From a virus (taxonomy: Duplodnaviria > Heunggongvirae > Uroviricota > Caudoviricetes), in the IMG/VR virus record IMGVR_UViG_3300010213_000001, positions 116,701 through 180,700 of that record: a stretch of DNA of 64,000 nt, one strand, 5' to 3'. Position numbers and translations under genes: made by a program. The notes under the pieces were generated by a model. The model saw only the letters and a program-made list of their open reading frames with translations, was not told the origin of the DNA and made no database searches. Positions 5,860 through 41,165 of this stretch are shown piece after piece; within the stretch, counting starts at the first letter, position 1; the number at the start of each line of letters is the position of its first letter.

Positions 5860-6147
5860 TTAGATATTTGTAGTGTTAATATCGATAAAATCGATTCCAT
5901 TATATACAACTGAGGTTATAACTTGATAAGTATTTTCTATCTCTCTAATAAGAAGATACGACTCTCCTATTGTAGGAGAGATATCCATATCAACTAATTT
6001 AGTGCAATTATCTAAGTTATTAATAATATATCCATACTCTTTTTCTGATAAAACAATAGAGTTTTCAGTAGGTAGAGCATTGTTAAACAGAAGTGCTTTT
6101 GTAAAAGAATTCATAGTATTAGAAATTAAACCAATCTTTACATCCAA
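5860..6147 (-). CDS. hypothetical protein
   Basis: 95 aa ORF; true start may be the internal Met (MNSF). Confidence 0.6.
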   Translation of the reverse strand: MDVKIGLISNTMNSFTKALLFNNALPTENSIVLSEKEYGYIINNLDNCTKLVDMDISPTIGESYLLIREIENTYQVITSVVYNGIDFIDINTTNI

Positions 6148-6847
6148 CTAATTCTGACCATCTAGTATAACACAACTTAGCATAGTCTATATAAAATAAA
6201 CCATAATCTCCTAAAGCAAATCCATCATTTACTTCAACTAGTATAGTTTTGCCATCTTTAGTTATTCCAAAATCTATACCATAAGCAAGCGGAGAAGATT
6301 TATAATCACTCACACATTGTTTAATTACATTATAATCTGGAACAACTGTATAATCTCCTTTATATCTACGCACATCTAATATCTCGCCATATCTAACAAA
6401 TGCTCTATACTCACTTACTAGTTCTACTGGTTCTGAACACCATATGTCATAATCTTCTCCTTGTACAGCTTTATTGACTAAATCTTTAGGAGAATTAACT
6501 ACTAGTCCAGTAAAGAACTTTTGCTGTTTAGGTTTTATGAATATACCTTCGTAACCTTTAATAGAATTAAAAGTACTTTCCCACACTTCTCTACCTAAGT
6601 AATCTCTTAGCTCTAAAGGATAGTCAAGAGGCTCCACTACATCTAAGTGTAATTGTCTTAATCTATTCTTAACAAATCCAATACCACCAATACATATATC
6701 TTCCTTATTAAAGGACACTATATCGTTAACTGTATCTACTATAGTACAGTGTGCTCCCATCTTTTGTAATCCCTTAAATGCTGAAAATGCTCCTAGTTGT
6801 GGATTAGGAGCATCATTCATCATATTTAGAATATAAGCGTTTACCAT
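6119..6847 (-). CDS. ATP-grasp domain protein (DUF4343/R2K-like)
   Basis: FIKPKQQKFFTG, SEYRAFV, YGIDFG, LVEVNDGFALGDYG. Confidence 0.85.
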   Translation of the reverse strand: MVNAYILNMMNDAPNPQLGAFSAFKGLQKMGAHCTIVDTVNDIVSFNKEDICIGGIGFVKNRLRQLHLDVVEPLDYPLELRDYLGREVWESTFNSIKGYEGIFIKPKQQKFFTGLVVNSPKDLVNKAVQGEDYDIWCSEPVELVSEYRAFVRYGEILDVRRYKGDYTVVPDYNVIKQCVSDYKSSPLAYGIDFGITKDGKTILVEVNDGFALGDYGLFYIDYAKLCYTRWSELVGCKDWFNF

Positions 6848-21679: not shown

Positions 21680-21912
21680 TTATTTAAATGTTCTTGGAAA
21701 AGGAATGATATCTCTAATATTTCCCATTCCTGTTACGTATTGTATTATTCTCTCAAACCCTTATATGGGATATATCTATCCCTTCTACTACAACTTGTAG
21801 TTTATCTAGTTTACTATCATTTGTTATAGATAGAAAAGACACATTAGAGCTTTCTCTCTTGTGTCTTACCCACCCATTCAAAGTGATAGTACCCCAACTT
21901 GGGGTACTCCAT
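21680..21912 (-). pseudogene. asnS: internally deleted asparaginyl-tRNA synthetase relic
   Basis: Hand translation. 21887-21753 = ITLNGWVRHKRESSNVSFLSITNDSKLDKLQVVV (OB-fold N-terminus). 21760-21680 = GFERIIQYVTGMGNIRDIIPFPRTFK* (class IIb motif 3 and AsnRS C-terminus). Confidence 0.85.
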
Positions 21913-28951: not shown

Positions 28952-29341
28952 TTAAATACTAGTATGAATACTTTCATTAGCTATCACTAATCTTGTATTA
29001 GTTAGGAATACTAATGCTTCAGATAATGCTCTATAACAACTAATTTGCAGCTTGGTTTCATCTTTATACCTTTTAAAGTCTACTTCTACTTTATTGTTGT
29101 TATCAATTAGAGCATATAAAGTATAATTATCTTTATCTGAGTTATATCTTGTACGAATATTACAATTTGTGTGATTGTTAATAATTTTGAACACATCGTA
29201 TATTCGAAAGAGTCGCACATCATCAGTACCTCCAAAACAACATTCATCTAATACACTATCACTTACTACTTCTTCTAATAAATAGAATAAATTATCATAC
29301 TTAAACCGGCAGTTACCAGGTAGTATTAATATGTTTTGCAT
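28952..29341 (-). CDS. hypothetical protein
   Basis: 129 aa ORF. Confidence 0.65.
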   Translation of the reverse strand: MQNILILPGNCRFKYDNLFYLLEEVVSDSVLDECCFGGTDDVRLFRIYDVFKIINNHTNCNIRTRYNSDKDNYTLYALIDNNNKVEVDFKRYKDETKLQISCYRALSEALVFLTNTRLVIANESIHTSI

Positions 29342-30045
29342 TAATTAATTTTTCTAAAAGTTAAATTAATTCTAGAGTTTTGTACTTTTGTCTGTTTAGG
29401 AACAGAGTGTTGCCAAAAATGTTGAAGTTCTCCCTTCATTATTAGTAATGATCCATGAGATAGACCAATTTCTAGTTTTTGCTTGTGATCATCAATTCTT
29501 CTAATTATAAATCTCCTAGATTCTCCTAAGCTTAAAGAAGCTATTGTTGGATTTGTACCTAATGATTTTTCGGCGTCTGTATGCCATGAAATATAATCTT
29601 GTCCATCTCTGTACCAGTTTAGTAGCACAGAGTTATAAATGCTACTTTCTATAGCTTGTATATCATTCTTTATTTGTAATAGGTTATCTTCCCATTCATT
29701 TGGACTTAGTGCAAGTCCTGAATAAGTATAAGAACTGTCTTTATCTCCATACCAAGATGAATATCTAGGTAAATAAACTAATTTATCAAACATATTAATT
29801 TTATGATGATCCCATTTTATATTTTTAAATGGGACTTTCTTAATAAGTTCTTTACTATTAGTCTTTATATCTATCTCTTCAGCTTCTTCAGTATTCTCAA
29901 TCTCAGTCAGATACTTAAAGTAATAATCTGCTTTTTCCTTATTATAAAACTCTGGAATAAATACCATACATCCATTAGAAACTTCTATGTTAAATATTCC
30001 ATTGGTTTCCTTGCATTTATAATCAGTAGTGGCTTTTATATTCAT
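29341..30045 (-). CDS. alkB: AlkB-family 2OG-Fe(II) dioxygenase (ALKBH2/3-like)
   Basis: LLNWYRDG, HTD (HxD), IASLSLG, WQHSVPK, RINLTFR. Confidence 0.92.
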   Translation of the reverse strand: MNIKATTDYKCKETNGIFNIEVSNGCMVFIPEFYNKEKADYYFKYLTEIENTEEAEEIDIKTNSKELIKKVPFKNIKWDHHKINMFDKLVYLPRYSSWYGDKDSSYTYSGLALSPNEWEDNLLQIKNDIQAIESSIYNSVLLNWYRDGQDYISWHTDAEKSLGTNPTIASLSLGESRRFIIRRIDDHKQKLEIGLSHGSLLIMKGELQHFWQHSVPKQTKVQNSRINLTFRKIN

Positions 30046-36678: not shown

Positions 36679-37073
36679 TTCTTTATAAGTTTGAATGCTT
36701 CAAATAAGCCCTTTTCTAGAGCTTCTTCATAGGTATTATGTGGACCTTTACTAGACCAATCTTCTTTTCTATGTCTAACTTCATCCATATAAATAGTTGT
36801 ATGTATAAGTGTGATATATTTATCAAATTCATTATATACTTCTACATGTATATTATGTACTTCTCTAAACCACTTTTGTAAAAGACTTAAAGTTGGAGCT
36901 GATATGCATTTACTATTTTCTATATTATAGTTATAATAACCTCCTTCTATAGTGTAATCTTCAAGACTTTCTGTTTCTATAATATAAGCATGTAATACTT
37001 CTTCAGTAAATCCTGCTTCTTTAGCTAGTTTGCTTAACTCAAATGATACTAATGTTTCTGCCATATTTACCAA
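36675..37073 (-). CDS. conserved hypothetical phage protein
   Basis: VSFELSKLAKEAGF, SAPTLSLLQKWFRE, TYEEALEKGL. Confidence 0.75.
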   Translation of the reverse strand: MVNMAETLVSFELSKLAKEAGFTEEVLHAYIIETESLEDYTIEGGYYNYNIENSKCISAPTLSLLQKWFREVHNIHVEVYNEFDKYITLIHTTIYMDEVRHRKEDWSSKGPHNTYEEALEKGLFEAFKLIKK

Positions 37074-37507
37074 TATTTATTTTCATTTTGATATTCTTCG
37101 CTACAATTCATATACTGACCTAAAGCTTTATGACTTATATACTTCTTTTTAATATTAAAGTATTTTATTTTATCAGCAATAAAAGATTGATTCTTTAAAT
37201 CTTTACAAAGTAATTGTAGGAATCTTGTTTCTTCTTTTACAGTAGGTCCAATATCTATATAGATGTGTAATGTAACACCACATATATTTATACTCTTATC
37301 TATTCTTAATACCTTACTATTGTAGGCTTCCATAAAAACTGGTCCTCTAGGAAATTTAGTATAACAATCATTAAGTTTATCTTTATACTCACTCTTTAAT
37401 CTAAGTTTAATTAAGCTAGATTTATAACGACGTGTAAAAAATATAGTCTTTTTATACTTAGTTTTGCTAATAAGCTTATTAGCAAAATTTAATAGTGATT
37501 CTTCCAT
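37067..37507 (-). CDS. hypothetical basic protein
   Basis: 146 aa ORF. Confidence 0.65.
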   Translation of the reverse strand: MEESLLNFANKLISKTKYKKTIFFTRRYKSSLIKLRLKSEYKDKLNDCYTKFPRGPVFMEAYNSKVLRIDKSINICGVTLHIYIDIGPTVKEETRFLQLLCKDLKNQSFIADKIKYFNIKKKYISHKALGQYMNCSEEYQNENKYW

Positions 37508-37518
37508 AATTATAATTT

Positions 37519-38997
37519 TTAATATGCTCTAGCAAACAAAACACGTTCTTTAGAAGGCTTGCCTGTTAGAATACAAACTCCGTCTTCTTGAGGATTATTC
37601 AAAGGAATACACCGAATAGTTGCTTTTGTTTTTTCTTTGATTTGTTCTTCTGTTTCGGCTGTGCCGTCCCAGTGTGCAGCAATAAATCCACCTGCATCAA
37701 GAGCTTTTTCGAATTCTTCCCACGTATTTACGTATGTGGTATTAGAAGTTCGGAACATCAACGCTTTTTCATAAATATTTTGTTGAATATCTTTTAAAAG
37801 CTCTTCTATTTTTTCGCCTGCACCTTCTAGCTGCCACGACATTTTTTCTTTTGTATCTCTACGAGCTACTTCTACCGTTCCGTTTTCGACATCACGCATT
37901 CCGATAGCTAAACGAACAGGGACACCTTTCAATTCCCATTCTGCAAACTTAAATCCTGGACGGAAAGCATCTCTATCGTCTAGCTTTAAAGAAATATTGG
38001 CTGCTTTTAGTTCGTGCATAAGAGGAATTAAAGCTCGTTTGATTTCCTTCAAATCATCTTCACTTTTATAAATAGGAACAATAACTACTTGAATAGGAGC
38101 CAATTTTGGAGGTAAAACCAAACCTTCATCGTCGGAGTGAGCCATAATAAGCGCACCCATAAGACGAGTCGAAACGCCCCAAGAAGTTCCCCAAACATAA
38201 TCTAATTTATTGTCTTTGGCTGCAAATTTCACATCAAAGGCTTTAGCAAAATTTTGTCCCAAGAAATGAGAAGTTCCTGCTTGAAGTGCTTTTCCGTCTT
38301 GCATGAGTGCTTCAATACAATAAGTTTCTTCTGCGCCTGCAAAGCGTTCGGATTCGGTTTTTAAACCTTGAATTACAGGAAGAGCCATATAATCTTCTGC
38401 AAAATCGGCATAGACTTTTACCATTTGTTCGGTTTCTTCAATAGCTTCTTGTTTAGTAGCGTGTGCAGTATGTCCTTCTTGCCACAAAAACTCAGCAGTA
38501 CGCAAAAACAAACGAGTACGCATTTCCCAACGCACCACATTTGCCCATTGATTGACTAAAATAGGCAAATCTCTATACGATTGAATCCAATTTTTATAGG
38601 TATTCCAAATAACAGCCTCACTTGTTGGGCGCACAACCAATTCTTCTTCTAGTTTTGCCTCTGGGTCTACCATTAACTTCCCTTCTTTGTTAGGGTCATT
38701 TTTCAGACGGTAATGTGTAACGACTGCACACTCTTTTGCAAAACCTTCTGCATTTTTTTCTTCGGCTTCAAACAAACTTTTCGGAACAAAAAGAGGAAAG
38801 TATGCATTGCTGTGTCCTGTTTCTTTAAATTTATCGTCTAAAATGCGTTGCATTTTTTCCCAAATAGCAAAACCGTAGGGTTTGATAACCATACAGCCAC
38901 GAACGGCTGAATGTTCTGCTAAATCTGCTTGTTTTACGAGTTCGTTGTACCACGCTGAATAATCGTCTTTGCGTGTAGGTAGTCCTTTTTTCACCAT
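37519..38997 (-). CDS. proS: prolyl-tRNA synthetase (archaeal/eukaryote-type form found in Bacteroidota)
   Basis: [72 protein letters not shown]-terminal FARAY. Confidence 0.97.
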
Positions 38998-39116
38998 GAT
39001 TCTCCTTTACTTTTAATGTATTCTTCAAATTGCTTCCTAGTTATTGCTTTTATAGCTCCAGATAATTCCTTTTGAATATCAAACCAATCAAAATAGTTTA
39101 TAGTTTTACTTTTCAT
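38991..39116 (-). CDS. small ORF whose stop overlaps the proS start
   Basis: Not in the track. [20 protein letters not shown]...KGESW* (41 aa), with an ATGGTGA overlap. Confidence 0.5.
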
Positions 39117-40184: not shown

Positions 40185-41165
40185 CTATACTGCTATATCT
40201 AATTTAATATTTGCATGACATTTATAATCTAGTAAAGTAAACTTATCTACGATCTTATCAATAGCTTTATCGAGGGAGTCTCCAGTTAAAGATAAATCAT
40301 ACTCTAAATATTCAAATGTTAATTCAGGATCAATAATTAATTCTCGTTTACAATCAATAGGAGTTCTATTTAATACTTCTCTAGCTCCTTCAATATGATT
40401 ATTATAAATATGAACATCTCCCATACTGTAAGTCATAATATTAGGGCTATAACCCGTCAACTTAGCGACTATATGCAGTAGAATAGCATATGAGGTAAAA
40501 TTAACAAAGCCACCAAGCATTAGATCCATACTTCTTTGATGAGTGTACAGATTTAACTTATTATGTTTATCAACATAAAATTGTATGACTGTGCCATGAC
40601 AATTTGCTAGAGCCATACGATCTAAATCTGGATTCCATAATGTAATCACATGTCTACGGGAATGCGGATTGTGGATTAGCCCATCTACTAAATTTTTGAA
40701 TTGATCAGCTTCACTAATATAAGTATCTTCTCCAGAAGTAGAGTCGAAACAAGTTATTCTATAATGTCTTAACATATACCCATACATATCTCCAATATTA
40801 CCATCGTCTTTCTGCCATGGAGTCCACCAGTGTTTTACTCTGCTATGTAATTTGTTAACATCGCTAGATCCATTTAAGAACCATAAAAGCTCTCTGATAG
40901 TATTTATATATGGTGTACTCTTTAATGTGGTAATAGGAATAGATTTGGATACGTCAATAGCTACTGAATATCCAAACAAAGATTTGGTACCTATACCTGT
41001 TCTATCTACACTATCTTTTCCATTACTTAGAATGTCTGCTATGAGATCTTTACACCAGTAATCAAATTCATATGGTGTTAGTACTGACTTAAGTTTAGTT
41101 TGCTCAGATTTATTTAGATATTTACTATAATTCCAGATATGCTTTAGTTTATCTATGATGTTCAT
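40185..41165 (-). CDS. thyA: thymidylate synthase ThyA
   Basis: DRTGIGT, ELLWFLNG, GDMYG, SRRHVITLWNP, MALANCH, QRS.D...N..SY, DVHIYNNH. Confidence 0.92.
   Translation of the reverse strand: MNIIDKLKHIWNYSKYLNKSEQTKLKSVLTPYEFDYWCKDLIADILSNGKDSVDRTGIGTKSLFGYSVAIDVSKSIPITTLKSTPYINTIRELLWFLNGSSDVNKLHSRVKHWWTPWQKDDGNIGDMYGYMLRHYRITCFDSTSGEDTYISEADQFKNLVDGLIHNPHSRRHVITLWNPDLDRMALANCHGTVIQFYVDKHNKLNLYTHQRSMDLMLGGFVNFTSYAILLHIVAKLTGYSPNIMTYSMGDVHIYNNHIEGAREVLNRTPIDCKRELIIDPELTFEYLEYDLSLTGDSLDKAIDKIVDKFTLLDYKCHANIKLDIAV

Follow-up and report, generated by a model that had tools for sequence, protein, structure and literature searches.

The proS gene, its product and its carrier

The DNA analyzed here, referred to as the window, is a 64-kb stretch of a phage genome. 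Its minus strand carries a gene for a prolyl-tRNA synthetase (ProRS), proS, which lies within a long, tightly packed block of replication and accessory genes. A DnaB-like helicase, a 5'-3' exonuclease, an AAA ATPase, a NADAR gene, an RlaP-like RNA-repair nucleotidyltransferase and a metallophosphatase are encoded on the same strand in the block around proS, to which thyA and the genes for AlkB and the R2K ATP-grasp protein also belong. The features discussed below are the following (window coordinates):

6119-6847, minus strand: R2K-clade ATP-grasp protein (PF18299/PF14243), 67-70% nucleotide identity to four Bernardetia genomes
21683-21912, minus strand: AsnRS remnant (class IIb synthetase), C-terminal motif at 21683-21760, 15.6 kb from proS
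29341-30045, minus strand: AlkB-like 2OG-Fe(II) oxygenase (PF13532), 65-72% nucleotide identity to Bernardetia genes
37067-37507, minus strand: downstream 146-aa phage ORF, 24% GC, no family match and no relatives found
37506-37518, minus strand: 3' junction and 11-nt spacer, where similarity to host DNA fades
37519-38997, minus strand: proS
38990-38997, minus strand: 5' junction with the remodelled start, from the alignment to eight host loci
38991-39116, minus strand: 41-aa phage ORF upstream of proS, with a 7-nt overlap between its stop and the start of proS, no family match
40185-41165, minus strand: thyA (thymidylate synthase), upstream in the proS block, with phage-typical codon usage

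The proS gene is an uninterrupted open reading frame of 492 codons, and its predicted 492-aa product scores 549.4 bits against the equivalog TIGR00408 (proS_fam_I; cut-off 437), with residues 9-492 covered. The models for bacterial-type ProRS give only 125-133 bits, far under their cut-offs. A Pfam search places the class II core (PF00587) at residues 115-284, the HGTP anticodon-binding domain (PF03129) at residues 303-399 and ProRS-C_1 (PF09180) at residues 426-492; the same search gave no match to an INS/YbaK editing domain. The protein has a C-terminal tyrosine, ending in ...VLFARAY. It is predicted from these features to be a class II ProRS of the archaeal/eukaryote-like (Bacteroidota) type that is devoid of the INS editing domain. 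The closest solved structure is that of the Thermus thermophilus ProRS (1H4Q, E 5.5e-159), with an end-to-end alignment in which residues 3-492 of the phage protein pair with residues 4-477 and the same three-domain architecture is found; the T. thermophilus protein is, however, a cellular enzyme from another phylum, and is useful only as a structural and mechanistic template.

The original prediction held that the locus encodes an intact ProRS of the Bacteroidota type, and both parts of this claim stand. In addition to the open frame and the TIGR00408 score above the cut-off, every one of the 290 internal columns with a conservation of at least 95% among 132 homologues is kept in the phage enzyme, and the nearest proteins are ProRS of Bernardetia. 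The sole departure from residues conserved in the family is residue 2, which lies inside the rebuilt start described below, and the comparison with 13 Bernardetia sequences leaves seven unique internal residues, which are conservative. Within the whole phage genome, proS is the only class IIa core gene.

The AsnRS remnant is of a different nature. It contains a 26-aa open frame with the AsnRS C-terminal motif (GFER..GMGNIRD.IPFPRT), which shares 77-81% amino acid identity and, over 38-51 nt, about 90% nucleotide identity with Bernardetia asnS; a piece corresponding to the N-terminal OB-fold is weaker (37% amino acid identity) and lies in another frame. Bernardetia is one candidate donor of this gene; its identity, although the highest (89-92%), extends over only 38-51 nt of a universally conserved motif. 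Longer alignments, at 77-81%, are obtained with other Cytophagales. The remnant suggests a second aaRS capture that has decayed, which would imply that captured aaRS genes can be dispensable in the phage.

The carrier is a linear virus record of 244,700 bp with a CheckV completeness of 96%, in which the phage DNA to the two sides of proS measures 154 kb and 89 kb. It encodes TerL, a portal protein and a major head protein, and the latter two match PHROG families. TerL is 24-30% identical to the terminases of crAss-like, Flavobacterium, Bacteroides and Cellulophaga phages, and the hosts of these phages are all Bacteroidota. On the basis of this TerL identity of 24-30%, the carrier would be a crAss-like phage, though a distant relation. 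Its size of 244.7 kb is far larger than that of typical crAss-like genomes, and its plus strand contains, at 44-98 kb, ORFs of 4649, 2972, 2529, 1960 and 1554 aa. Shine-Dalgarno-like motifs are depleted in the 20 nt upstream of the starts (4 of 260 genes versus 7.6% at random positions), which fits a Bacteroidota host; G accounts for just 2-9% upstream of the ORF starts. Neighbouring genes on the same strand are at most 15 nt apart in 47% of cases, and 17% overlap. One tRNA-Met and one odd tRNA-like gene were found with ARAGORN in the phage genome, and no tRNA-Pro. Positions 1-57 of the record (minus strand), at the very start of the contig, hold a tRNA-like gene that is cut at its 3' end (Rfam tRNA, 34 bits), and neither a terminal repeat nor a tRNA running over a circular join of the contig ends was found. 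The assembly probably breaks in a cluster of RNA genes, which would make the genome slightly incomplete.

Searches of IMG/VR gave no usable relatives for TerL, the AAA ATPase, the two ORFs flanking proS or a membrane protein of the replication block. Three relatives of the AAA ATPase, with 37-46% identity, are present on Logan contigs of 2.5-5.7 kb. Two Logan contigs were read: one stops 400 nt past the AAA ATPase, and the other carries a DNA ligase downstream of it and no proS within 3 kb. In relatives whose AAA ATPase is 37% identical (L153:3221-5239 and L154:3346-5364), an NAD-dependent DNA ligase is located two genes downstream of the ATPase, at the position that is occupied in the phage studied here by small ORFs, thyA and proS; the accessory block thus appears to vary between relatives.

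Base composition, codon choice and the donor of proS

The GC content in 300-nt windows is 0.35-0.41 over proS and 0.24-0.29 on either side. Calculated per gene, it is 0.390 for proS, 0.243 for each of the adjoining genes and 0.314 for thyA, in agreement with the earlier observation that the GC content of proS is raised over that of its flanks. In the comparison with the whole genome (the 244,700-bp record, one contig, 30.2% GC, 260 ORFs called), proS ranks second in GC content among the 169 genes of at least 150 aa (z = 2.7). The excess resides mainly in the first codon positions (GC1 of 0.543 versus a mean of 0.405, z 2.85), and GC3 is just 0.268 versus 0.207 (z 1.5, rank 10). The proS orthologues of Bernardetia have a GC content of 36.9-38.0%, with a GC1 of 0.52-0.54 and a GC3 of 0.21-0.24, and in the 21 kb around proS of B. 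litoralis, which have 29.8% GC, proS is the GC-richest gene as well. The further claim that the GC excess marks a foreign genome must therefore be abandoned: since Bernardetia DNA around proS has about 30% GC and its own proS is likewise an outlier, the GC bump is a property of the conserved proS gene, and GC alone is silent on foreignness or recency. As a separate observation, the strongest composition outlier of the phage genome lies at positions 1860-2420 of the record (minus strand), with 48% GC, a GC3 of 0.48 and the top surprisal under the phage codon model; this stretch has no Pfam match and may not be protein-coding at all.

The real donor signature of proS is its synonymous codon choice. 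Its 23 arginine codons comprise 12 CGT, 4 CGC, 2 CGA and 1 CGG, i.e., 19 CGN codons, and 4 AGA, against 2062 AGA, 256 AGG and 268 CGN in the remaining phage genome (80% AGA and about 10% CGN), which bears out the initial remark that arginine is encoded by CGN in proS and by AGA in its neighbours. The four clustered CGT codons that had drawn attention are codons 156, 160, 162 and 166. In most of the 23 arginine columns, the phage gene and its Bernardetia counterparts have the identical codon, including AGA at codon 491. This last position bears on another claim, namely that the final codons of the gene, AGA GCA TAT TAA, look phage-like. However, AGA-GCN-TAT-TAA is present in eight of eight Bernardetia orthologues, so the 3' codons of proS were evidently inherited from the host and not remodelled.

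Host and phage differ in codon use beyond arginine: CGN makes up 54% of the arginine codons in the host versus 10% in the phage, ATA 30% versus 56% of the isoleucine codons, and AAG 13% versus 36% of the lysine codons. We expressed these differences as a per-codon log-likelihood ratio between a host model and a phage model for 166 phage genes. With +0.216 bits/codon, proS ranks first of the 166 (z 7.1, or 5.4 when arginine is left out), against -0.119 +/- 0.048 for the other phage genes and 0.200 for the host's own proS. All phage genes other than proS have a codon usage distinct from that of the host, and the codon profile of proS does not equal that of other phage genes, a possibility that the original prediction had itself raised.

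Among 5.8 billion proteins, the best match to the phage ProRS is that of Bernardetia litoralis DSM 6794. The phage protein shares 91-95% amino acid identity with ProRS of Bernardetia, and the next relatives are at about 78-79% or less. All other members of the 90% cluster that holds it are Bernardetia or 'Flexibacter' isolates or MAGs, and its identity to the cluster (91-95%) is in the same range as that of the members among themselves. The proS genes retrieved from 17 genomes of the family included nine orthologues at 91-95% and seven at 72-77%. The Bernardetia proteins (WP_014799011.1 of B. litoralis DSM 6794 and that of Bernardetia sp. OM2101) resemble the phage ProRS in length (491 versus 492 aa), in sequence (92-95% identity), in domain order, in the arginine codon used in most of the 23 columns and in the C-terminus ...VLFARAY. 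They differ from it at the start, which reads M-A-K-G in place of M-V-K-K-G, and at the seven internal positions where the phage copy has private substitutions; unlike theirs, the phage gene has neither the promoter region nor the terminator of the host and is located between phage ORFs.

At the nucleotide level, the codon alignment of phage proS with eight intact Bernardetia genes gives 86-89% identity, with a dS of 0.57-0.82, a dN of 0.03-0.05 and a dN/dS of about 0.05. The host-to-host dS of proS within Bernardetia is 0.38-0.74, and the phage-host divergence of proS falls among the inter-species distances within Bernardetia. In the maximum-likelihood tree, phage proS is nested in a five-member Bernardetia subclade with 99/99 support, and an AU test, for which the group was named after the tree had been seen, rejects a clade of the eight host genes that excludes the phage gene (p = 0.021). 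Along proS, identity to the sampled hosts stays at or below 96% in every 150-nt segment, so nothing points to a tract of very recent recombination, and the species that actually donated the gene would be an unsampled one. The one match above 90% that a metagenome search for closer proS alleles returned is identical to a Bernardetia MAG that had already been compared, and looking for the exact phage protein on other contigs gave no record. Other viral contigs with a ProRS were considered as kin of this capture and rejected as unrelated, being at most 77% identical.

These comparisons identify proS as a single-gene capture from Bernardetia (Cytophagales, Bacteroidota). The transfer would postdate the onset of divergence among the sampled Bernardetia species, and would thus be recent on the scale of the diversification of the genus; 'recent' is relative and not absolute, as the nearest sampled donor gene still differs by 11% in its DNA. 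The proposal of a recent single-gene acquisition from a cellular host holds in this relative sense, given the 91-95% amino acid identity, the nesting within one genus and homology confined to the coding sequence (CDS). The expectation that the closest cellular homologue would identify the host has also been borne out, with Bernardetia at 91-95% against about 78% for the next relatives and a phylogeny that agrees. On the basis of gene similarity and phage type, Bernardetia is the probable host of the phage.

Boundaries of the capture and residence in the phage

The ends of the capture can be located with precision. The first nucleotide homologous to the eight host loci is base 9 of the CDS (window 38989). 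The phage start, ATGGTGAA(A)... (M-V-K-K-G), differs from the host start, ATGGCAAAAGG (M-A-K-G), by one additional codon: the phage reads ATG-GTG-AAA-AAA-GGA where the hosts read CTT-ATG-GCA-AAA-GGA. As was originally noted, the start of proS overlaps the stop of a 41-aa ORF (38991-39116), and the TGA within ATGGTGA at the proS start is this stop; the overlap of 7 nt may allow translational coupling of the 41-aa ORF with proS. A sequence AAAGGAG before the proS start was considered as a Shine-Dalgarno motif and discarded as coincidental, since it lies inside the upstream ORF and such a motif occurs in 4 of 260 genes. The upstream region of all eight host loci, with a TAccTTTG box in common, is absent from the phage.

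At the 3' end, host homology runs out 0-13 nt past the TAA stop (window 37506-37519), and the 146-aa phage ORF begins 11 nt after this stop. A G+C-rich hairpin that is present downstream of proS in six of the eight hosts is not found in the phage. Scans for promoters and terminators around proS gave counts at chance level, with nothing in the two junction spacers, and when metagenome contigs were searched for exact copies of the 35-nt 5' junction, no second contig was retrieved.

The claim that no host neighbours came along with the gene is supported by the comparison of the window with five Bernardetia genomes, in which homology at this locus is confined to the CDS and no host flank is present in the phage. 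In the 64-kb window, proS is the only stretch with at least 86% full-length identity to these genomes, and no other long stretch exceeds 76% nucleotide identity. The other matches are the AlkB-like gene (65-72%), the R2K ATP-grasp gene (67-70%), a 114-nt patch (76%) and, at about 90% over no more than 51 nt, the short remnant of AsnRS. The AlkB-like gene, which has two counterpart copies in B. litoralis, may be an older host-related gene.

With regard to the time spent in the phage, the changes private to phage proS are 20 synonymous and nine non-synonymous ones, three of the nine in the rebuilt start, which is no worse than in host lineages. No AT-ward bias was detected on the phage proS branch, and no drift to phage-preferred codons: 16 private synonymous changes go towards and 15 away from them, no more than in host lineages. 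The terminal branch of phage proS amounts to 0.11 substitutions/site, without a frameshift, a stop or the loss of a conserved residue. Its residence in the phage would have sufficed for the loss of both flanks and the emergence of the overlapping start, but would have been too short for its codons to shift. Purifying selection on proS inside the phage is likely; some of its terminal branch may belong to a Bernardetia lineage outside the sample, however, and for this reason the low non-synonymous count is no proof of selection in the phage.

Interpretation and significance of the capture

We favour, with a probability of about 0.65, the view that this is a Bernardetia-derived housekeeping proS, present as a bare CDS in a crAss-like phage of that genus and encoding an active enzyme that would sustain the supply of prolyl-tRNA. 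According to this view, a Bernardetia bacterium would have donated its housekeeping proS to the 245-kb phage infecting that genus; the host promoter and terminator would have been lost, so that the coding sequence alone remains, and the start would have been rebuilt with the stop of the preceding phage ORF overlapping it. During infection, proS would share transcripts with the phage genes around it, and its translation may be coupled to that of the upstream ORF. The phage ProRS would be active and charge host tRNA-Pro, the phage having no tRNA-Pro gene of its own, and prolyl-tRNA would be kept up in this way as host gene expression fails. As proline makes up 2.8% of the phage proteins, a simple argument from proline demand is weak.

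The low proline content also belongs to what can be said for an alternative to which we assign a minor but appreciable chance, namely that proS is a neutral passenger that arrived by illegitimate recombination, is too recent to have decayed, confers no advantage and will share the fate of the AsnRS gene, the relic of which lies 15.6 kb away. That its synonymous changes are not shifted to phage codons (16 towards, 15 away), that there is no AT-ward drift and that its codon profile is still wholly host-like are in line with such a passenger. On the other hand, nothing but the exact CDS is left of the host DNA and the start has been rebuilt over the stop of the upstream ORF, both of which suggest that proS has spent some time in the phage and has been selected for expression within a phage operon; a branch of 0.11 substitutions/site free of frameshifts, stops and losses of conserved residues also argues against a passenger. 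An unlikely reading is that the phage ProRS serves in counter-defence or as a decoy, replacing or shielding the host ProRS, and the charging of tRNA-Pro, when an abortive-infection system or a toxin attacks translation, its gene being one of an accessory region that also has genes for the repair of RNA and of bases. The neighbourhood, with AlkB, the RlaP-like RNA-repair nucleotidyltransferase, NADAR and the metallophosphatase, suits this idea, and huge phages have been proposed to intercept and redirect translation (PMC7162821). However, no defence system targeting ProRS was identified in this analysis, and the phage enzyme is nearly identical to that of the host (seven unique, conservative residues), so that any inhibitor recognising the host protein would also strike the phage enzyme.

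It is equally doubtful, though conceivable, that the phage lineage repeatedly acquires aaRS genes of its hosts, each as a bare CDS, and loses them later, as a fast-turnover, condition-dependent arsenal. This thought comes from the contrast between an intact ProRS and an AsnRS of which the two ends are left; the precise ends of proS would then reflect a specific route, for example a transcript-based one or one through recombination at microhomology at start and stop, and not random recombination followed by trimming. By far the least probable explanation is that proS reads of Bernardetia were misjoined into the phage contig. A phage and its host are expected in one sample, and the exact search with the 5' junction gave no second contig, as would be the case for an artefact. 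Such a chimera would nevertheless require two joints exactly at the ends of the CDS, within a contig that has 154 kb and 89 kb of phage DNA on the two sides; the allele differs by 11% from every sampled Bernardetia gene, a phage-specific extra codon supplies the stop of the upstream ORF, and the host promoter, terminator and neighbour genes are all missing. The exact joints, the extra codon and the divergence from known host genes together make a chimera very unlikely.

The reading that we prefer, that of a functional gene of Bernardetia origin, does not describe something new in kind: very large phages are known for such captures, of which proS is a clean example. Host-related aaRS genes have been reported from huge phages (Al-Shayeb et al. 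2020, Nature 578:425, PMC7162821), and the phylogeny of these genes has been used for host prediction, including Bacteroidetes hosts (PMC7162821), in the same way as is done here for proS. The present case differs from these in that the phage has a single intact aaRS gene plus one relic, in that the gene is nested in one genus at 86-89% nucleotide identity, which places the donor at the genus level, and in that the boundaries of the capture can be read to within a few bases. Phage-borne proS genes are also known from the Acinetobacter phage MD-2021a and the Microcystis phage MaAM05, which have genomes of about 250-275 kb; their products are, however, only 31-32% identical to the ProRS studied here, over about half the protein, and so are not close relatives but would represent independent captures.

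For the biology of these phages, the capture would allow the host of an uncultured 245-kb crAss-like phage to be predicted down to the genus (Bernardetia, marine Cytophagales). The collections searched contain no close relatives of this phage, and our literature search found no paper linking Bernardetia with a phage. The case also carries a lesson of method: when a phage and its host have equal base composition, a GC bump tells which gene it is and not where it came from, and the transfer is revealed only by synonymous codon choice together with phylogeny. Read in this manner, proS would be an unusually well-resolved host-to-phage capture, in which the sequence still shows from which clade the gene came, where exactly it begins and ends, how its start was rebuilt and that its donor codons are unchanged.
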